A DNA stretch of 64,000 nt from a virus. This document shows positions 8,674-46,381 of the stretch, one piece after another; the stretch's first letter is position 1; each line of letters begins with the position of its first letter. The notes below the pieces were generated by a model. It did no database searches. It was not told the DNA's origin and saw only the letters and a program-made list of their open reading frames with translations. The DNA is taken from the IMG/VR virus record IMGVR_UViG_3300040811_000687; one strand, given 5' to 3'. A program made the translations under genes and the position numbers.

Positions 8674-8988
8674 TTATTTTTTACTTTCTATTGTACAAAC
8701 TCTTTTACAAGGTTTAGGTGCCTTATCATAATCAATCAAACTATTTGGTAAAGTTTTTTTAAACCACTCTTTATTTAGTATATTTTTTAAAGAGTCATTT
8801 TTTATGTTATATTCTTCTTTTTTAGATAGATAGTCTTTTATAATAGGATGTGATCTACCATCAGTTTCTTTTTTGTTTTCATAATCTATAAAATGTAATT
8901 TTAAAAAACAACATTGAAACACTTGTCCGTCAGGCTGTATTAAACACCTACTACTTTCTTTCCATTTACAAATAATACTTTTAGCCAT
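8674..8988 (-). CDS. stand-alone SPASM-like Fe-S domain protein
   Basis: CKW...IQPDGQVFQCCF...CKRVC; follows radical SAM 8981..9679. Confidence 0.75.
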   Translation of the reverse strand: MAKSIICKWKESSRCLIQPDGQVFQCCFLKLHFIDYENKKETDGRSHPIIKDYLSKKEEYNIKNDSLKNILNKEWFKKTLPNSLIDYDKAPKPCKRVCTIESKK

Positions 8989-9679
8989 TTTCTTTATTTT
9001 TTGGATATTTGTCTACTGCTATCTGTACTGTTGTATCCGTAGCAGCTTCTAAATATTCATCTTCTCCTTTTTCATTGACAAAATGCCATTTTGATTTACC
9101 ATCAAATCTATCTGATAAACAAAATTCATGGTTATGTGATCCCCATTTCTTTGCTAAATCTAATATATCTTTTTTATAATCCTGGTTATGTTTAAATATA
9201 ATTGTTTGAGATAACGGTATTGCTTTTGTTTTTGACAAAGCATACATATTATTTAAAGATTTTTTTAATGAAGCACCACGTCTATATTTGGTGTGCATTT
9301 CTTCATTAATACCATCTATATCAAAAACGATTGCTAATCTTTTATCACAATAATTACCTATTTCTTCATAAAACTTTTCTGACCTAATACTACCATTTGT
9401 TGTTATGGTTACTTTAGATTTTATTGAATTGTCTATTATGTAATATATAATCTTTTTTATATCTTTGGCCATCAAAGGATCTCCCCATAAACCACAAAAA
9501 CTATATTCTTCCATGTCATCTAAATCATTTATTGGAAAAGCAGTTTGAAACTGTTCTAATGACCAAGTATCTAGAGGAAGTAATTCGTGAGTTTTTAATC
9601 CGTTAGGATCAGTTCTTCTACATTGTGGGCATTTAATGTTACAAAGATTAGTAACAGAAATATCAACCGTTTTCATCAT
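8981..9679 (-). CDS. radical SAM protein (core only)
   Basis: CNIKCPQC, GLWGDP, TTNGS, DIDGINEEMHTKYR. Confidence 0.9.
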   Translation of the reverse strand: MMKTVDISVTNLCNIKCPQCRRTDPNGLKTHELLPLDTWSLEQFQTAFPINDLDDMEEYSFCGLWGDPLMAKDIKKIIYYIIDNSIKSKVTITTNGSIRSEKFYEEIGNYCDKRLAIVFDIDGINEEMHTKYRRGASLKKSLNNMYALSKTKAIPLSQTIIFKHNQDYKKDILDLAKKWGSHNHEFCLSDRFDGKSKWHFVNEKGEDEYLEAATDTTVQIAVDKYPKNKENG

Positions 9680-12377: not shown

Positions 12378-13426
12378 AGTGAGGCTAATATTGTATTACA
12401 TGTGTTATTTATTTCTTCATCTGTTAAAAAAGGATCAATTGGTAATGTTAAAATTGTATCACTGATATGTTTACAATTAATACAATCATCGCTTCTATGT
12501 GATATGTTTTTATACATAGGGCGTTCAGATATAGGTTTTTCATAGTGTACATTGGCATTTAATCTCTTTTTAACTCTGTTTCTTGTTTCTTTGTCTTCAA
12601 ATCTTACAATATATTTATGATACGTATGATTGACACCATTTGAGGTTGATTGTATAATTATGTCGTCCTTTAGTTGTTCATCATATTTTTTTGCTATTAT
12701 TTGTTTAGCCTCAACATATTGATCTAGTTTTTTTAATCTATAATCAATAAACTTTGCATTAAAGAATAACATTTTAGAGTTGTATCCTAGTATCTCATGG
12801 TTACCATGTTTTCTTAGCTTAATACACATATCAGCATAGTCTTTGTTATCTGTCAATACCACACCACCTCCGGCGATCCCACCTATCGTTTTGTTCGCAT
12901 TAAAACTTATTGTACTTAATTCTCCTAGAGTACCTGCTTTAACACCGTTAAGACTAGAACCTATGGCCTGAGCTGCGTCTTCTATAAATGATATGTTTTT
13001 TTCTTTACAAAATTTTAATATCTCTGTTATATCTGACATATTACCAAATAAATGTGGATAGACAATTGCTTTTACTTTGTCTGAATACATACGTTTGATA
13101 CTGTCAAGTGATATATGATAAGTTTCTTTATCTATATCGCAAAATACAGGAGTTGCACCTACCATAGATATACAAGACGCTGTTGATATCCACGAAAAGT
13201 TGGTTGTCAATACTTCATCGCCTGGTTTTATATTTAAACATTTTAAAGAAAACATTAAAGCGTCTGTACCGTTTTGACAAGCAACAGCATATTTTCTTCC
13301 TATTGTATCTGTAATTGTTTTTTCTAAAAACTCTATATTTTGTTCTTGTTTTTCTTGCATACACTCATCAAAAAGTTTAAGATATTCTTCTTTGTTTAGT
13401 GCATAATCTTTATTCCATGAATCCAT
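12374..13426 (-). CDS. DegT/DnrJ/EryC1/StrS PLP-dependent sugar aminotransferase
   Basis: NGTDAL, GATPVFCDI, IEDAAQAIG, SFNANKTIGG with catalytic Lys, GYNSKM. Confidence 0.95.
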   Translation of the reverse strand: MDSWNKDYALNKEEYLKLFDECMQEKQEQNIEFLEKTITDTIGRKYAVACQNGTDALMFSLKCLNIKPGDEVLTTNFSWISTASCISMVGATPVFCDIDKETYHISLDSIKRMYSDKVKAIVYPHLFGNMSDITEILKFCKEKNISFIEDAAQAIGSSLNGVKAGTLGELSTISFNANKTIGGIAGGGVVLTDNKDYADMCIKLRKHGNHEILGYNSKMLFFNAKFIDYRLKKLDQYVEAKQIIAKKYDEQLKDDIIIQSTSNGVNHTYHKYIVRFEDKETRNRVKKRLNANVHYEKPISERPMYKNISHRSDDCINCKHISDTILTLPIDPFLTDEEINNTCNTILASL

Positions 13427-13845
13427 TATTTTATTTCCTCTACTACTTTTTTACCTTCAGCTGAAAAGTGAGTTTCTATTTTTATTTTATCTTCTTTTTC
13501 TCTTACTTTACAGTGATGTATACAAACTGATTGTACTTTTTTTAAACTGTCTTCATCTCCTATATCTCTAGCATTAATTAAATCATTTTCAAACTCAACC
13601 CATTCTTTTGTTTCAAGTATTTCATTTATACTATTATAGTCTTCAAGTTTACTTACATCATACAAAGGTTTAAATTCTTTTGAATTTATTATATTTTTTT
13701 CGTCACACCAACAACATGGTAATAAATAACCTCTATTATTAACTGCCATAGGCATAACATGTTTTCTACCATGCCATTCGTAATTTCCTTGTCTATCTTT
13801 ATCCGGTAAACAGAGAGGACTTAATTTAATTCTTTGTTTTGCCAT
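13426..13845 (-). CDS. stand-alone SPASM-like Fe-S domain protein
   Basis: PLC...AVNNRGYLLPCCWCD...CIHHC. Confidence 0.75.
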   Translation of the reverse strand: MAKQRIKLSPLCLPDKDRQGNYEWHGRKHVMPMAVNNRGYLLPCCWCDEKNIINSKEFKPLYDVSKLEDYNSINEILETKEWVEFENDLINARDIGDEDSLKKVQSVCIHHCKVREKEDKIKIETHFSAEGKKVVEEIK

Positions 13846-14513
13846 TTGTAATTTCCATCTTTATCTTTTTCAGTTTGTTTTGTTAATAGTGTTTTAATTC
13901 CGGAAGAACCTGTTGGTCTTAAAGGATCTGGTTTACCATTATCATCCCTCCATCTAGAAGATTGAACCAATATAAATTCAAGTCCGTTGTCCGAAGCCAT
14001 TTTTTTGGCTTCTTCTATATTATTTTCATTGTAATTAAATATTATGTATTGCCATTGTGGTGTGGTATTTAAATGTTGTTTTGCTATTTTCATTATCTCA
14101 AACATCTTTTCTCCGTCTTGATTTTTTCTATACTTATGACTATCTTTCGGTAAGCCGTCACAGGCAAATACCCACCTTGCATTTGGATTTGCTTTAAATG
14201 ATTTAATAAACCATGATATAGGTTTAGCCGTGGCTGCGCTGTGAACTGTAGCTCCAATATTTTTTTTATTAAATAGTTCTAGTATTTCATTAAATCTAGG
14301 GTGATGTACAGGATCCGATAATTGTCCACAAAAGCCAACTGATTTAAAATGATCTGTTATCATATCTATTTCATGCAATGTTAGATCACGCCCATGTGGT
14401 ATTAAGCCTTTATTTGTAAAGGCCGTTTGTCTTTGACAATTAGGACATTCTAAAGGACATCTATGAGATAAATCCAAATTCAGTGCGTGTAATCTTTTTT
14501 TAAAATATGACAT
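13821..14513 (-). CDS. radical SAM protein (core only)
   Basis: CPLECPNC, FCGQLSDP, DGLPKDSHKYR. Confidence 0.9.
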   Translation of the reverse strand: MSYFKKRLHALNLDLSHRCPLECPNCQRQTAFTNKGLIPHGRDLTLHEIDMITDHFKSVGFCGQLSDPVHHPRFNEILELFNKKNIGATVHSAATAKPISWFIKSFKANPNARWVFACDGLPKDSHKYRKNQDGEKMFEIMKIAKQHLNTTPQWQYIIFNYNENNIEEAKKMASDNGLEFILVQSSRWRDDNGKPDPLRPTGSSGIKTLLTKQTEKDKDGNYKWQNKELN

Positions 14514-15379
14514 TATAATTGATTTATAGCTTCTATAAGTGTATTTATATTACTTTTATTTATCGGGTCCGTTAAACAGTTTGCTGGCCTTTTATAATAA
14601 ACAGGTCCTGCGTCTTTAATATTTTTATCTCTTGCATATATAAAATTCATTCCAAAAAAACGACACTCCTGCATTAATCTTGGTGCCGGATCAAATGTGT
14701 GTTTAGTATAAACGTAAGTGTCAAACATACCTAATAAATTTTTTACAGGTACAAATACATGATTTAAATTATGGTCTATGTACTTATCTTTGTATGCCAA
14801 GATACCATGATTTTGGTATTTGTGAATATGTTTTTTTAGTTCAGTATAATAACTTTCGTTTGTACCTAAAAATAGATACTTAAACTTAACGTCTTTAACT
14901 ATAGGTTTATATACACTGTAATTAATAATCTTTTCAAATTGTCTACCTATACCATTAACATATACCTCGTGATCGCATAAGTCAATTACTTTTTCTGGTT
15001 TAAAAAATTCTAGTGCTAAAGGATATTCTTTAGGGTGGTTTTCTGAATATACTGATATAAGAGGTTTCTTAAATAACAAACGTAAAGTCAATTGTGTATC
15101 TTTATCATAGTCTCTAATACTTTTATATGCCAAAGTTAACATACTTCTACCCATAATTAAATTTACATCAGCTTCTTCATAATCAAAATATACATTTTTC
15201 ATATGTATATACTTTTCTGTTAAGGCCTCTATATAAGTTTCTTTGGTAAATCTGTAGTGAGGTATGATTATAAGTTTTGCATTAATACCTAAATCGTTTA
15301 GATATTGTACTTGTTCAAAACTATAATGCATTAAACCATCGCCTGGTTTAGAAGTCACTATTACGTTTAATCTAGTCAT
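14513..15379 (-). CDS. hypothetical protein, possibly a divergent GT-B glycosyltransferase
   Basis: First gene of the minus-strand operon; weak GT-B-like C-terminal DPAPRLMQEC segment. Confidence 0.5.
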   Translation of the reverse strand: MTRLNVIVTSKPGDGLMHYSFEQVQYLNDLGINAKLIIIPHYRFTKETYIEALTEKYIHMKNVYFDYEEADVNLIMGRSMLTLAYKSIRDYDKDTQLTLRLLFKKPLISVYSENHPKEYPLALEFFKPEKVIDLCDHEVYVNGIGRQFEKIINYSVYKPIVKDVKFKYLFLGTNESYYTELKKHIHKYQNHGILAYKDKYIDHNLNHVFVPVKNLLGMFDTYVYTKHTFDPAPRLMQECRFFGMNFIYARDKNIKDAGPVYYKRPANCLTDPINKSNINTLIEAINQL

Positions 15380-15384
15380 ATATT

Positions 15385-15413
15385 ATTATAACATTTTTTG
15401 ATTAATTTGTCAA
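15385..15413 (-). promoter_or_regulatory. consensus sigma70 (early) promoter of the 14-kb minus-strand operon
   Basis: Minus strand TTGACA-N17-TATAAT, ATG 5 nt after the -10; a minus-strand TATAAATA also at 15423-15430. Confidence 0.85.
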
Positions 15414-15435: not shown

Positions 15436-15443
15436 TATAAATA
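15436..15443 (+). promoter_or_regulatory. T4 late promoter TATAAATA
   Basis: Exact box upstream of a GGAGG SD and ATG 15465. Confidence 0.75.
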
Positions 15444-15464: not shown

Positions 15465-15635
15465 ATGACTATAAAAGCAAAACACAAAGATTTAAAAAAG
15501 CAAGTTAAAGAAGCTGAAGTAAAAAGAGAAACTAGACGTGGTTCAAGAAGTTGGACAGATTTACGTACATTAAAAAAATTAAAACTAAAAATGAAAGATA
15601 AGTTAAGATTATCTAAAAAAAGAATGAGTTTATGA
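15465..15635 (+). CDS. small basic coiled-coil protein, DUF465/YdcH-like (not in ORF track)
   Basis: 56 aa MTIKAKHKDLKKQVKEAE...LRTLKKLKLKMKDKL; GGAGG SD; ATGA overlap with next gene. Confidence 0.7.
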   Translation: MTIKAKHKDLKKQVKEAEVKRETRRGSRSWTDLRTLKKLKLKMKDKLRLSKKRMSL

Positions 15636-16087
15636 AGACTTACCAGTACGATTTAGAAAAGATTAAAAAAGAGTTAGAAACTTTACCAGATTATAATAAA
15701 CAATTATATCTACAAGGTTATTCTAAAGACATGGATCCTGAAGAAGGAGCTGGTAAAGGTTATGACGTAGATAAAGTAGAACACACATATACTGTTCCTT
15801 TATTTGATATACCTTATATTAATAGTATAATGGAAGAACACAAACTTACTAGAACAAGATTGATGAGAATGAAACCTAAAGCATGTTATCTTTGGCATAA
15901 TGACTTGACACAAAGATTACATATACCAATAGTAACAAATGAACACTGTTTCTTATTACTAGATAATGATAGAATACACATACCAGCCACAGGAGAGGCG
16001 TATGTAATAGACACTAGAAAAAAACATACAGCACTAAATTGTTCAAAAGAAGATCGTACTCATATTGTTGGAGGACTACCTTATTAA
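15632..16087 (+). CDS. 2OG-Fe(II) dioxygenase, aspartyl/asparaginyl beta-hydroxylase-like
   Basis: WHND (HxD), RLHIPI, HTALN, RTHIV. Confidence 0.8.
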   Translation: MKTYQYDLEKIKKELETLPDYNKQLYLQGYSKDMDPEEGAGKGYDVDKVEHTYTVPLFDIPYINSIMEEHKLTRTRLMRMKPKACYLWHNDLTQRLHIPIVTNEHCFLLLDNDRIHIPATGEAYVIDTRKKHTALNCSKEDRTHIVGGLPY

Positions 16088-17388
16088 TGGATAATACATT
16101 ATATGACGCCGTTATTACATCACTGCCAGGAATGGATAAGGGTAAACCTGCACCTGGTCCTTCTTTTTTAAAAGGATATTTAGAACCATTAGGATTTAAA
16201 ATTAAAGTTATAGATGGTAATCAATTAGATACTTTAGAAAATATACACAAAGAAATTGCAAAATATAAATTTAGATGGTTAGGTATATCTGTATTTTCTT
16301 TTATGCAAAAAGAAGATGGTTTAAAATTAGGAGAAAAATATGATAATGCTTTTTACGGAGGATCAGGTGTTGATATAAAATGGCCTTCTAAAAATTTTAT
16401 AGTAGGAGAAGGAGAATATGCTGTACAAGAATTTTTAAAAGGAAATTTTGATTATCCTGGTATTAACGGAAGACTACCAAAACAGATAGAAAACATAGAA
16501 GATTTGCCACCACCAGATTATTCAGACGTAATAAAAGAACACAAATATGGCAGATTTATAATATCTGGTTCTAGAGGTTGTGTTAGAAATTGTACTTTCT
16601 GTGATGTTGCAAGTATCTGGCCAAAATTTAGATGGAAATCAGGTAAAAAAATTGCTGACGAAATACATAGTGTTGCTGAACATACTAAATCTGAAAAGAT
16701 AGCATTTTCCGATTCATTGGTTAATGGTTCAATGAAACATTTTAGAGATATGGTTTACGAATTATCTATAAAAAAGAAAAAGGTAAAATGGGAAGGACAG
16801 TTTATTGTCAGAGCTGAAAAGACTTTTTCGCAAGAAGATTTTGATAATTTGGCAAACTCTGGTTGTAATGGTTTGGAAATGGGTATAGAATCAGGTAATG
16901 AAAGTGTTAGAAATCATATGAAAAAAAAGTTTACTAATGATGATATAAAATACTTTGTTACCAATTTAGGAGAAAGAAAAATTAAAATGAAGTTCTTACT
17001 GATTGTAGGATATCCTACGGAAACGGAAGAAATGTTTGAAGATACTATGCAACTATTAAGAGACTATGCAAAGTATTCACATTTAATCAGTGTATCTCAC
17101 CACGTTATGATGACTTTTGAAAATACACCTTTAGATTTTGAACATAGAGAATTGTTTGGTGGAGAATTTGGCTTCAAATGGAAAAATCAAAACTCCGATT
17201 TTGATATAAGATTTCAAAGATTTATAAAACTTTATGAATTAGGAAACCAATTAGGTTATCAGTTTCAACAACATTGTATTGACAAAATAGAAAGATACAA
17301 ATCTGATAAACTTAATGAAAATAGAAAGTCTATAGGAATTGATCACCCTAGAAAGAAAAAAGTTAATTCTTTACATGTACAATCTTAA
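16087..17388 (+). CDS. cobalamin-dependent (B12-binding) radical SAM enzyme
   Basis: N-terminal B12-binding-like domain (PAPGPSFLKGYL, LGISVFS, YGGSG, VGEGE) then SRGCVRNCTFC, GIESG, IVGYPTET; start probably ATG 16087 rather than 16039. Confidence 0.88.
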   Translation: MDNTLYDAVITSLPGMDKGKPAPGPSFLKGYLEPLGFKIKVIDGNQLDTLENIHKEIAKYKFRWLGISVFSFMQKEDGLKLGEKYDNAFYGGSGVDIKWPSKNFIVGEGEYAVQEFLKGNFDYPGINGRLPKQIENIEDLPPPDYSDVIKEHKYGRFIISGSRGCVRNCTFCDVASIWPKFRWKSGKKIADEIHSVAEHTKSEKIAFSDSLVNGSMKHFRDMVYELSIKKKKVKWEGQFIVRAEKTFSQEDFDNLANSGCNGLEMGIESGNESVRNHMKKKFTNDDIKYFVTNLGERKIKMKFLLIVGYPTETEEMFEDTMQLLRDYAKYSHLISVSHHVMMTFENTPLDFEHRELFGGEFGFKWKNQNSDFDIRFQRFIKLYELGNQLGYQFQQHCIDKIERYKSDKLNENRKSIGIDHPRKKKVNSLHVQS

Positions 17389-18992
17389 AAAGATTTATTA
17401 AAACCTAAAGTAAATTTTCTTCCTTCTTGACTAAACCCATGAGGTGATTCATAATTTTCATCAAATAGATTTAACAAACTAACACCAAAGTCTATACCAT
17501 AATAATTATATCCAAGATTTAAATCTAACAAATGTGTTTCAGGCATTGTTATAGTTGACCAATTAGAATTATGCACATCTAAATGTCTGCCTTTATATTT
17601 GTAATTAGTAGTTATAGAAAAGTTATTTTTTAAATCTTTTGTATTCATAAATCCAACAGACCAATTAGGTCTTCTTAATTGTACTACATCAATCTTTTTA
17701 CTATTTAAATGACTAATAAAAAATTTAGAATTTTCTTGATTATAACTAAACTCTATACCGTCAGTATTTAAATCACCAATATCATTTTTAAATATAGTTG
17801 TTGCAAAATTATTTTTAGTTAATGTTAACTCTTGTGATTCTCCATATTCAATAGCAGTCCATGTTGTCTTATCTTTATAACTTGTTGATGTACTACCACT
17901 TATACTTAAACCATCTTCTACCTCTTTAAAGAAACCTAATTTATATGTTTCGTGTTCTTCATCAAACCTATGATGATATGAAAATATATTGTGTGAAAAA
18001 TTAAAGAAGTATCCTAGATTATGATGTTGACTTGCTAAAGATTCATTATGTTTATAATCAAAGCCAAAACCATATTTTTCTTTTTGATGTGTTCCTCTTA
18101 TTGTATAGTTTTCACTTTCATAATGAGAGTCGTCATAGTCTCTATCATATTCATGTGTATGAAAAGTTAAACTATTATTTAAATAATCAACACCTGTTTG
18201 TAAGGCAAAGAAAGTATTATCTGCCCATTTACCGTCTTGTATGGAAACACTATGACCATCTATATCAGAGAAAGTGTTTCTTGCAAACCAAGATGTTCGC
18301 CAATGTATTTGATCATACCATTTACTTACGTTAACACCTATTGTTTTATTATTTGTTCCATCTTTTTCGTCAGCTCCTGATAAAACAGAAACGTTTTGCG
18401 ACTTATGTTCGCCAGCTGAAAAAGATATATCAAAGTCATTTAATTTAGTATAGTAATTACCACTAATAGTTTTATCATTACCATTACCACCAATACTTAA
18501 TTTTTTATCATAATCTACAGTTGTTCTAAAATTAATTGCACCACCAACAGCGTCTGCTCCCCAATGAGCACCTTGTGACCCTTTGTATACATCTATTTGT
18601 ACAACATTAAACATAAAGTCTTGACCAACATCGTGGGCGCCTGTAGGTGTAGAGTAATCATTGATTGATATTCCATTTAATAATACTAATGTATGATTAG
18701 AATTAGTGCCTCTTAAAAACACCGATGATTGTTGACCTGTAGGACCTGATTGAGTTATGTCTAAACCTTGAACATAGTTTAATACTTTAGGTAAATCAAT
18801 TAGATTATACTTTTGAATTTCAGATTTTTTAATTGTAAGTGTAGGTGTTATCTTATCACCTAATGCGTTTGAGTTGTTTATGTTTGGATATATTGTAAGA
18901 CAAGGAATATCGTCATCCCATTTACAATCATCTTCCTTGGAATAGGCAACATTAGCCCATACCAAGATTAATATAAGAATTAATCTTATCAT
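17385..18992 (-). CDS. btuB: BtuB-like TonB-dependent outer-membrane cobalamin receptor
   Basis: Signal peptide; plug GLDITQSGPTGQQSSVFLRGTNSNHTLVLLNG and KGSQGAHWGADAVGGAIN resemble BtuB; NLFDENYE...GRKFTLG and C-terminal Phe; cobalamin riboswitch upstream. Confidence 0.88.
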   Translation of the reverse strand: MIRLILILILVWANVAYSKEDDCKWDDDIPCLTIYPNINNSNALGDKITPTLTIKKSEIQKYNLIDLPKVLNYVQGLDITQSGPTGQQSSVFLRGTNSNHTLVLLNGISINDYSTPTGAHDVGQDFMFNVVQIDVYKGSQGAHWGADAVGGAINFRTTVDYDKKLSIGGNGNDKTISGNYYTKLNDFDISFSAGEHKSQNVSVLSGADEKDGTNNKTIGVNVSKWYDQIHWRTSWFARNTFSDIDGHSVSIQDGKWADNTFFALQTGVDYLNNSLTFHTHEYDRDYDDSHYESENYTIRGTHQKEKYGFGFDYKHNESLASQHHNLGYFFNFSHNIFSYHHRFDEEHETYKLGFFKEVEDGLSISGSTSTSYKDKTTWTAIEYGESQELTLTKNNFATTIFKNDIGDLNTDGIEFSYNQENSKFFISHLNSKKIDVVQLRRPNWSVGFMNTKDLKNNFSITTNYKYKGRHLDVHNSNWSTITMPETHLLDLNLGYNYYGIDFGVSLLNLFDENYESPHGFSQEGRKFTLGFNKSF

Positions 18993-18995
18993 GTT

Positions 18996-19097
18996 GAGTT
19001 TCCTTGCTCGTTGTATGGCCTAGGTGGCATTCGGAGTATAACCGTATCAAGTAATCTGGACGAATTTCACGTCACTTTCCCACTACACTTTTAGGCC
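18996..19097 (-). ncRNA. class II cobalamin riboswitch (AdoCbl-variant / env8 HyCbl type)
   Basis: Minus strand GGCCTAAAAGTGTAGTGGGAAAGTGACGTGAAATTCGTCCAGATTACTTGATACGGTTATACTCCGAATGCCACCTAGGCCATACAACGAGCAAGGAAACTC; GGCCTA/TAGGCC stem, GGGAA, GCCAC B12-box elements, terminal hairpin holds the AAGGA SD with CAAG complementary to CTTG. Confidence 0.92.
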
Positions 19098-19114
19098 ATT
19101 GTTATATACTATAT

Positions 19115-19143
19115 AGTATATAATATTTTATCTAAAATGGCAA
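19115..19143 (-). promoter_or_regulatory. sigma70 promoter for riboswitch-btuB
   Basis: Minus strand TTGCCA-N17-TATACT, ending 17 nt before the riboswitch. Confidence 0.75.
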
Positions 19144-45165: not shown

Positions 45166-45927
45166 ATGGAAAAAGTAATTATAGATGATAATGGTAATGA
45201 AATAACTGATGGTATGAAAATTAAAAGATCAGAATGGAATCTTTTACCTAATAAAAATAAAGTATATAAATCAACAAAAGTTAATTTAGATTTATCACAT
45301 AGATGTCCTTTAGAGTGTTTACGTTGTCCTAGACAAACGTATGATTATAAAGGTAAAATTCAATATAGAGGTGAATTAAAAAAAGAAGGTCTAAAAAAGA
45401 AACCAGTACCAGGCAGAGATATAACAATGGAAGAATTTGATAAAATTACAGATTATTTTGCTACGATACAATTTTGTGGACAATATTCTGATCCTATACA
45501 TCATCCACATTTTATTGATATGTTAAAAATGATAAAAAGAAAAGGTTTAAGAAGTCAAGTACATTGTGCCTCTAATTATAAATCAGACGAATGGTTTAAA
45601 GAAGCATTTGAGGCCTGTCCTGAAGCACAATGGTGGTTTGGTATAGATGGATTACCTAAAGATAGTCACAAGTATAGAATAAATCAAGATGGTGAAATGC
45701 ATTTTAAAAGATTAAAAATGGCAAGACAGATATTAACTAGAAAACCTATATGGCAATATATTGTTTTTAGTTACAATCAACATGATATAGAAAAGGCTAT
45801 GAAAATGGCTGAAGATATAGATGTTATTTTTAGTGTCATAAACAGTGGTAGGTGGGACAACAAAGGTCCAGATAAACTAGCTCCTACAAACGGAAAAGGA
45901 ATTAAAGCAAATGAATATGAAAAATAA
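45166..45927 (+). CDS. radical SAM protein (core only), paralogue of 13821..14513
   Basis: NLDLSHRCPLECLRC, FCGQYSDP, GIDGLPKDSHKYR; GATAAATA 5 nt before the ATG. Confidence 0.9.
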   Translation: MEKVIIDDNGNEITDGMKIKRSEWNLLPNKNKVYKSTKVNLDLSHRCPLECLRCPRQTYDYKGKIQYRGELKKEGLKKKPVPGRDITMEEFDKITDYFATIQFCGQYSDPIHHPHFIDMLKMIKRKGLRSQVHCASNYKSDEWFKEAFEACPEAQWWFGIDGLPKDSHKYRINQDGEMHFKRLKMARQILTRKPIWQYIVFSYNQHDIEKAMKMAEDIDVIFSVINSGRWDNKGPDKLAPTNGKGIKANEYEK

Positions 45928-46381
45928 AATTAAATTTAATTTTCCACACGTAAGCGAATATGAAGAAAAAGGAAAAATAGGAACTAATCATACTAAACTA
46001 TATGATGATGACGGTAATATAATATCAGATGAAGAAAATGGTATCAAAAGCAATGTTGGAATAAAACCTATGTGCATTAGAGGAAACATGAACTTGGCCG
46101 TAACTAATAGAGGTCAATTATTACCTTGTTGTAAATGTGATACTCATAGAATGATGAAAGATCCGGAGTTTAAAAAATTAGTGGATAATAGTTATCTTAC
46201 AGATTATGATAGTGTAAATGACCTATTGAATAATGATTATTACAAAGCCTTTCAAGAGTCATTAGAACGCAATAGAGGTCCTTTTGCTTGTTGGGATCTT
46301 TGTAGAACTAATAAAGAAAAAGGTAGACAAGAAATGACAGTAGCCGTAAAAGGTGAATTAAAAATATGGGAAAGAAAATAA
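45911..46381 (+). CDS. stand-alone SPASM-like Fe-S domain protein
   Basis: PMC...AVTNRGQLLPCCKCD...CWDLC. Confidence 0.75.
   Translation: MNMKNKIKFNFPHVSEYEEKGKIGTNHTKLYDDDGNIISDEENGIKSNVGIKPMCIRGNMNLAVTNRGQLLPCCKCDTHRMMKDPEFKKLVDNSYLTDYDSVNDLLNNDYYKAFQESLERNRGPFACWDLCRTNKEKGRQEMTVAVKGELKIWERK

Follow-up and report, generated by a model that had tools for sequence, protein, structure and literature searches.

A cobalamin riboswitch, a BtuB-like receptor and a class-B-type radical SAM gene at one locus of a pelagimyophage

The riboswitch, the receptor and the radical SAM gene

We analyzed a 64,000-nucleotide stretch of the virus record IMGVR_UViG_3300040811_000687 (the window; all coordinates refer to its full length), in which a cobalamin riboswitch and a gene for a BtuB-like outer-membrane receptor on the minus strand meet, tail to tail, a radical S-adenosylmethionine (SAM) gene of the class B type on the plus strand. 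A first-pass annotation, made from the nucleotide letters and their open reading frames (ORFs), had described the locus as a vitamin B12 sensor-importer-consumer unit inside a lytic T4-like genome. It placed a sigma-70 promoter in front of an intact riboswitch whose last hairpin holds the Shine-Dalgarno (SD) sequence, a receptor whose stop codon overlaps that of a convergent B12-binding radical SAM gene, and a late promoter upstream of the latter. As far as sequence analysis goes, this reading of the locus is supported.

The riboswitch aptamer is located at positions 19017-19097 (minus strand) and matches the class II cobalamin riboswitch family AdoCbl-II (Rfam RF01689) over its full length (1-81 of 81 positions), with a score of 75.2 bits against a gathering threshold of 36.5 (E = 6e-17). 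In an alignment of the window sequence with 17 phage and SAR11 homologues (18 sequences), compensatory changes are found in 12 of the 20 predicted helix pairs. The expression platform (18996-19016, minus strand) was assigned from the sequence and from a minimum free energy (MFE) fold. Here, helix P1 is followed by the 7-nucleotide J1/13 linker AUACAAC (19010-19016) and by the P13 hairpin GAG-CAAGGAAA-CUC (18996-19009), which is present in the MFE fold; AAC and the AUG start codon of the receptor gene at 18992 come next. The loop of this hairpin, L13, contains the SD sequence AAGGA 8 nucleotides upstream of the AUG, and its CAAG is complementary to the CUUG of loop L5, as read from the sequence, making up a kissing loop. 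The letters of this pairing covary: CUUG/CAAG in the window type is replaced by CCAGG/CCUGG in the phage loci L026 and L063, by CCUG/CAGG in most SAR11 copies, and by CCCG/CGGG in L086. The Rfam score, the helix covariation and the kissing-loop covariation together argue for a genuine riboswitch that selection maintains along with the kissing loop around its SD sequence, and the arrangement is of the translational kissing-loop type known from class II cobalamin riboswitches. Riboswitches of the RF01689 class prefer hydroxo- and methylcobalamin over adenosylcobalamin (AdoCbl), and the env8HyCbl RNA of the same class brings about ~8.5-fold reporter repression with hydroxocobalamin and discriminates against AdoCbl (PMC5028336). 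By analogy with env8HyCbl, with which it shares family and geometry, the window leader is predicted to bind cobalamin and to repress.

The gene behind the riboswitch (17385-18992, minus strand) encodes a 535-residue BtuB-like outer-membrane receptor with a signal peptide, a plug, a 22-strand barrel with short loops, and a C terminus (...NKSF) ending in Phe. Its N-terminal plug matches Pfam Plug (PF07715) with E = 1e-17 and 64.9 bits against a cutoff of 23.9, and its best sequence match in the PDB is Escherichia coli BtuB (E = 3e-23). An AlphaFold model built with 47 homologues (predicted local distance difference test score (pLDDT) 71) places the plug within ~22 strands, and the top 12 Foldseek matches are all BtuB, with template modeling (TM) scores of 0.70-0.74. 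The receptor has no canonical TonB box; its family carries an invariant C-x-W...P-C-x-T-I signature at the position where the E. coli protein has DTLVVTA. A cobalamin riboswitch directly upstream ties this receptor family to corrinoids in both phage and SAR11 lineages (see below), which suggests a corrinoid as its ligand and B12 transport as its function.

The convergent gene (16087-17388, plus strand) encodes a 433-residue protein with a putative B12-binding domain and a radical SAM domain. It starts with an ATG at 16087, which overlaps the end of the upstream gene as TAATG and is preceded by GGAGGA, and its stop codon overlaps that of the receptor gene as TTAA (17385-17388). The radical SAM core (Pfam Radical_SAM PF04055, E = 1e-19) shows the CxxxCxxC motif as CVRNCTFC. 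The B12-binding domain PF02310 is matched by 35 of 40 members of its family (E<0.01), and the close relatives P0123, P0125 and P0130 match this domain over its full length with E values of 1e-5 to 1e-6. The structural model (pLDDT 92.9) finds its best fold matches among the cobalamin enzymes MgmA, OxsB, TsrM and TokK (TM 0.65-0.68), and the NCBIfam PhpK and B12-rSAM models match the radical SAM core, at scores below every curated family cutoff. Family and fold together suggest a class-B-type protein that probably uses cobalamin.

The radical SAM gene is the last of three genes. The first is a small, very basic ORF of 56 codons (15465-15635, plus strand), of which the syntenic locus L007 has a homologue. 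The second encodes an Asp/Asn beta-hydroxylase-like protein (15632-16087, plus strand; PF05118, E = 2e-8) that appears translationally coupled to the radical SAM gene and occurs in the same gene order in L007. The combination of a small ORF, a hydroxylase and a class-B methylase may recall a pathway for ribosomally synthesized and post-translationally modified peptides. We rejected this reading: the 56-residue product is rich in Lys and Arg and has no look of a core peptide, and we found no other support. A T4-type late promoter motif, TATAAATA, lies at 15436-15443 (plus strand), 22 nucleotides upstream of the first ATG of the operon (15465). A perfect sigma-70 consensus with an extended -10 element (TTGACA-17-TGnTATAAT, 12/12) at 15385-15413 (minus strand) stands back to back with it and points into the minus-strand gene at 14513-15379. 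The putative early promoter of the receptor gene is a sigma-70-like site (TTGCCA-17-TATACT, 10 of 12 consensus matches) at 19115-19143 (minus strand). It lies in a ~59-nucleotide piece that is kept even in relatives without the riboswitch (L007, L023, L024). No terminator-like site was found between the convergent genes (17385-17388 and flanks), so that transcripts from the early and the late promoter should each continue, as antisense, into the other, possibly forming a temporal switch.

The structural proteins identify the genome around this locus. Tail sheath, portal, major head protein and a gp46-like nuclease match PHROGs with E values of 1e-141 to 1e-208, and the major head (capsid) protein is 86% identical to that of Pelagibacter phage Mosig, 74% to that of OM43 phage Melnitz, and 71% to that of HTVC008M. 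Judged by these proteins, the window is a T4-type pelagimyophage whose structural core is closest to SAR11 myophages. Positions ~1-33 kb contain glycosyltransferases, a carbamoyltransferase, radical SAM genes and collagen-like fibers; this region, with the B12 unit inside it, is the counterpart of the hypervariable 'host recognition cluster' known from pelagimyophages, an island in which radical SAM cassettes are abundant (PMC7029224). Additional radical SAM genes, SPASM/maturase-like by NCBIfam, are found at 13426-14513, 8674-9679 and 1922-2848 within the island and at 45166-46381 behind the capsid gene.

The riboswitch with AAGGA in its L13 loop, the BtuB-like receptor, the overlapping stop codons of the convergent pair (confirmed by the ORF coordinates) and the lytic T4-like character of the genome had thus been described correctly by the first-pass annotation. 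The neighbor described there as a B12-binding radical SAM protein does belong to a B12-binding/radical SAM family; the match of its own N-terminal domain is below threshold. Both promoters stand as sites: the early one is present and conserved in relatives, and the late one is suitably placed in front of the operon. Neither motif is more common than chance, with 28 sigma-70-like sites in the AT-rich stretch vs. 25.5 expected and 19 copies of TATAAATA in the window vs. 15.7; the late-promoter call consequently depends on position.

Distribution among phages and the SAR11 counterpart

A protein search returned 591 relatives of the receptor, almost all of them from marine metagenomes. The contexts that we inspected are phage-like: nrdA/nrdB lie beside the receptor in L001-L006, L007 is a syntenic copy of the locus, and L154 contains ThyX together with CsgF/CsgG, genes typical of pelagimyophages. 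IMG/VR contributed 66 receptor loci with 41-99% identity. In 23 of these the riboswitch is located directly upstream of the receptor, 21 being detected by BLAST and two (L026 and L063) by the covariance model; in L069, which encodes a basal 611-residue receptor of 41% identity, both methods detect it. A scan of 45 viral records with the model of the classical Cobalamin family, RF00174, gave no match.

We then asked how often receptor and radical SAM genes are found together. In 25 loci, with receptor identities of 73-99%, the receptor is followed by the radical SAM ortholog in convergent orientation, and 20 further contigs contain other class-B-type genes (adjacent in L059, L060, L065, L066 and L069; within 10 kb in L045-L047, L049, L070 and L071). 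As 7 of the 66 loci end at the receptor and are uninformative, a class-B-type radical SAM gene is present on 45 of 59 informative receptor contigs. In the reverse direction, a receptor gene is convergent directly behind the radical SAM ortholog in 21 of 31 informative loci, and six of these 21 receptors are of a very divergent type that lacks the riboswitch. The latter is represented by L163:9339-11020 (minus strand) and also occurs in L164, L165, L172, L183 and L193; it is 27-30% identical to the basal phage form and has the same C-terminal ...DGRNFNFGIKKSF ending. No Rfam riboswitch was found in L163, L165, L183 or L193. Receptor and radical SAM genes are thus linked, not obligately. The first-pass annotation had named independent assortment of the two genes among related phages as a finding that would speak against it; they do not assort independently in either direction. 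In the phage collection, neither the receptor nor this radical SAM protein has a match in the isolates Mosig, HTVC008M and Melnitz, and a tblastn search of the receptor against phage isolates returned only plug-domain matches in mislabelled bacterial records. No isolate phage in the collection contains DNA near-identical to the window, and the nearest DNA record, G001 (45 kb), lacks the B12 locus.

A chimeric contig, another objection anticipated by the first-pass annotation, would explain the locus as a bacterial riboswitch-receptor piece misjoined to phage DNA. The receptor gene family is elsewhere cellular, and JGI labels relatives with the cellular name 'outer membrane cobalamin receptor'. 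Against such an artifact, the same riboswitch-receptor-radical SAM junction recurs in independent contigs from many samples, and the receptor is joined to phage genes in dozens of contigs whose samples and assemblers are independent of each other (ENA, JGI, IMG/VR, Tara). The window itself contains T4-type structural genes, G+C content and coding style at the locus are the same as in its flanks, and the phage receptor proteins form a clade of their own. We therefore regard a misassembly or cellular DNA as highly improbable.

The nearest cellular relatives of the receptor are proteins of ~615 residues from Pelagibacteraceae single-cell and metagenome genomes, which are 30-35% identical to it. 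An AdoCbl-II riboswitch (74-101 bits) is found just upstream of the receptor in 13 of 15 scanned SAR11 loci. A DUF6580 membrane protein follows the SAR11 receptor, and the flanking proteins include glycosyltransferases and proteins that pass the Pfam cutoffs for both the B12-binding and the Radical_SAM domain. The unit is flexible in L074-L093 (e.g. L086:3736-9759 and L075:2145-6403), combining riboswitch, BtuB-like protein and DUF6580 with one to three B12-binding radical SAM genes and glycosyltransferases. These loci abut 23S or 5S rRNA genes, a site that we take to be SAR11 hypervariable region 2. Among 201 sampled SAR11 (Pelagibacteraceae) genomes, 12 contain the receptor, all with an adjoining DUF6580 gene, and 49 contain DUF6580. 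We considered DUF6580 as a BtuM-like protein and found no sequence match in the PDB; it is a candidate inner-membrane corrinoid permease.

A quick maximum-likelihood tree (IQ-TREE, Shimodaira-Hasegawa-like approximate likelihood ratio test) recovers a phage/metagenome clade (support 93) and a SAR11 clade (99) as sisters, and the branch that sets them apart from other bacteria has a support of 100. Nearest to the phage/SAR11 split are the long basal phage forms, and both clades have the N-terminal C-x-W...P-C-x-T-I signature in common. The short SD-sequestering platform of the window lineage is found in phage loci only within our sample; SAR11 copies are longer (~100 nucleotides). Two phage loci, L026:5829-6000 and L063:5828-6000, have a long SAR11-type platform (AGUCCGCUGU...GGCCUGGGAAAGUCUAGUUCUACAAU...) almost letter for letter, with the kissing-loop pair swapped and the regulated element ~60 nucleotides upstream of the start codon. 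Since SAR11 has a sister receptor clade, the same riboswitch and class-B radical SAM neighbors, the unit is not a phage invention; the phage carries a copy, with a streamlined protein and a streamlined leader, of a flexible unit of SAR11.

Comparison with known systems

For more than ten years, the env8 riboswitch has been used as a model in structural and single-molecule work. The env8HyCbl RNA, an AdoCbl-variant of class II (Cbl-IIa), derives from the marine metagenome read GenBank AACY021350931.1 (Johnson 2012; Polaski 2016, PMC5028336). Compared by published numbering only, it resembles the window leader in Rfam family, the 7-nucleotide J1/13 linker, P13/L13 at nucleotides 89-102, the U45-A99 pair, G96, the unpaired purines at 97 and 98, the 6-nucleotide L5, and the ribosome-binding site in L13. 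A97 and G98 of env8HyCbl are shared by the relatives L010 and L032, whereas the window has A98. Leaders of 102 nucleotides with env8HyCbl geometry are found at 18996-19097 (minus strand) of the window, at L010:5354-5455 and at L032:5896-5997. The source organism was left unassigned in the env8 work, whereas in our sample the short platform occurs only in phage loci. As its geometry matches a leader with this platform, env8HyCbl is probably of pelagimyophage origin.

We next compared the locus to the E. coli btuB system, in which a cobalamin riboswitch likewise controls translation of a plug-and-barrel outer-membrane protein; this protein, BtuB, is the one that our receptor matches best in both sequence and fold. 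The E. coli leader belongs to the long AdoCbl class, whereas the phage aptamer is a compact 81-nucleotide class II element. The receptor is encoded by a lytic phage, is only ~18-20% identical to E. coli BtuB over the fold and ~75 residues shorter, and has no canonical TonB box; TonB itself was not found in the host-lineage genomes that we searched. In the SAR11 unit, the receptor belongs to the sister clade and has the N-terminal Cys signature, the riboswitch is of the family found here, and the neighbors are of a similar kind. It differs in sequence (30-35% identity), in the size of the host protein, and in having DUF6580 and a long platform, neither of which is present in the window. The radical SAM protein shares the N-terminal Rossmann-like domain and the radical SAM barrel with the class B methylases MgmA (9ccb), TsrM, OxsB, TokK and CysS, from which it differs by its short length (433 residues) and the sub-threshold match of its B12 domain.

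Riboswitches have been reported from marine phages before: the glutamine/glnA RNA in Melnitz, Mosig and cyanophages, and manA and wcaG (PMC9004378, PMC2864571). In these cases too, a lytic phage places a host-type metabolite-sensing RNA before a gene of its own. The ligand class is a different one, and the gene regulated here is a nutrient receptor. A survey of pelagimyophages looked for riboswitches and reported none (PMC7029224), and the Melnitz study described only glutamine riboswitches in these phages, while noting that btuB of the OM43 host is preceded by a cobalamin riboswitch (PMC9004378). In a B12 mesocosm study, it was stated as not known whether SAR11 btuB is regulated by B12 (PMC9296465). 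We found no published description of a phage-encoded btuB or cobalamin riboswitch.

A probable B12 supply module and its alternatives

The riboswitch, the folds, the gene linkage and the sister relationship to the SAR11 unit are established elements of this locus. On balance, we consider it probable that they form a host-derived auxiliary module, located in the host-recognition cluster of a SAR11 myophage and supplying B12 to phage enzymes. Early in infection, host RNA polymerase would transcribe the receptor mRNA from the sigma-70-type promoter. While hydroxo- and methylcobalamin are scarce, the SD sequence in L13 would be free, and the BtuB-like protein would be made, exported and placed in the outer membrane, where it would admit corrinoids. 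Upon a rise in corrinoids, the ligand would bridge the aptamer and the L5-L13 kissing loop, hiding the SD sequence and stopping synthesis. The imported cobalamin may feed the tail-to-tail class-B radical SAM enzyme and, in related phages, other such enzymes. Expressed from the late promoter together with the Asp/Asn-hydroxylase-like protein, the radical SAM enzyme would most likely C-methylate a glycan or a structural protein from the surrounding glycosylation/fiber island. Class-B methylases (TsrM, TokK and Fom3-type enzymes) cycle through methylcobalamin, a form that is preferred by this riboswitch class, and we count this match in favor of a supply module.

Several observations weigh against it. 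The receptor falls far short of the NCBIfam BtuB cutoffs (TIGR01779, 95.3 vs. 599.7 bits; NF007926, 86.8 vs. 836) and is not matched by the Pfam barrel model, which does match basal phage relatives. The PF02310 match of the window's own radical SAM protein is weak (E = 0.016, 15.5 bits vs. 32.1), and its fold is also similar to those of AprD4 and MiaB, which lack cobalamin. The riboswitch is missing from 43 of the 66 viral loci and is hence dispensable; 14 receptor loci have no class-B gene in reach; and some linkage may be expected from location alone, both genes being part of an island rich in radical SAM cassettes (PMC7029224). Transport partners are a further concern. No TonB, ExbBD, BtuFCD or DUF6580 was found in the phage loci, although DUF6580 always follows the SAR11 gene, and the phage supplies the outer-membrane step only. 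For the host check proposed by the first-pass annotation, two hidden Markov models of TonB were run on 17 single-cell and 5 larger SAR11 genomes and on 5 large viral contigs, of which one is rated as complete, and gave no match. Each of the 5 larger genomes contains only one ExbD/TolR-family gene. The TonB C-terminal domain was undetected in G147, G080, G100, G112 and G153 and in the 17 single-cell SAR11 genomes, which encode a BtuB-like receptor.

The receptor-like protein could instead serve phage-host surface interplay, by superinfection exclusion, as a decoy or by replacing a host surface protein, with the riboswitch as a hitch-hiking remnant. This would agree with the position of the gene among fiber and glycosylation genes of the host-recognition cluster (PMC7029224), with the shortened external loops (535 residues vs. 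~615 in SAR11 and basal phage forms), with the loss of the riboswitch from most lineages, and with the missing TonB or inner-membrane partner. A remnant would not be expected to look like the window riboswitch, however, which is intact, scores far above threshold and keeps its kissing-loop complementarity via compensatory changes. The streamlined SD-sequestering platform of the window lineage, unseen in SAR11 copies, looks like an adaptation rather than decay, and a surface role leaves the linkage with B12-type enzymes in phage and host unexplained. We thus consider it unlikely. A different objection concerns the enzyme: the receptor may import B12 or another corrinoid that is used during infection by host metabolism, or one that other phage enzymes need, while the adjacent radical SAM protein is cobalamin-independent and its adjacency accidental. 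The sub-threshold PF02310 match and the presence of AprD4 and MiaB among the good fold matches fit this idea, as do the receptor loci L001-L006, where class I ribonucleotide reductase genes are the neighbors and a radical SAM gene is absent, and the distant viral class-B genes, only 1 of whose 47 loci has a receptor nearby. Yet PF02310 is present in most of the family and full length in close relatives, the best fold matches are cobalamin enzymes, and the tail-to-tail junction is kept across receptor identities from 73% to 99%. In distant phages and in SAR11, other class-B subfamilies occupy the neighboring place. Accidental adjacency therefore also seems to us an improbable explanation.

A bolder form of the B12 supply module can be put forward tentatively, as a possibility about which we have more doubt than confidence. 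Only ~6% of the sampled SAR11 genomes have the receptor compared with ~24% for DUF6580, and the phage may thus supply a missing outer-membrane gate. It would then give B12 entry to cells that lack it and make a B12 importer of a cell that is otherwise indifferent to B12, powering phage class-B radical SAM chemistry on glycans or fibers. Instead of a classical TonB, the gate would use the Tol system, or it would be a ligand-gated channel of which the Cys-Trp...Pro-Cys signature is the mark. A phage origin of the env8 hydroxocobalamin riboswitch would follow as a by-product.

In the surface ocean, vitamin B12 is traded like a currency and is often limiting. SAR11, the most abundant bacterium there, is usually described as little involved in B12 uptake via outer-membrane receptors. 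Our findings point to an unrecognized flexible B12 unit in the SAR11 hypervariable region beside the rRNA genes, to a BtuB-type gate in a lineage without detectable TonB, and to a likely viral origin of the env8 model riboswitch. The locus provides a clean, testable model of a sensor-importer-consumer unit, and a lytic phage that meters an auxiliary gene by a riboswitch would be a rarity. A widespread phage lineage with a B12 sensor, a gate and B12-type enzymes would bring viruses into the B12 economy of the ocean.

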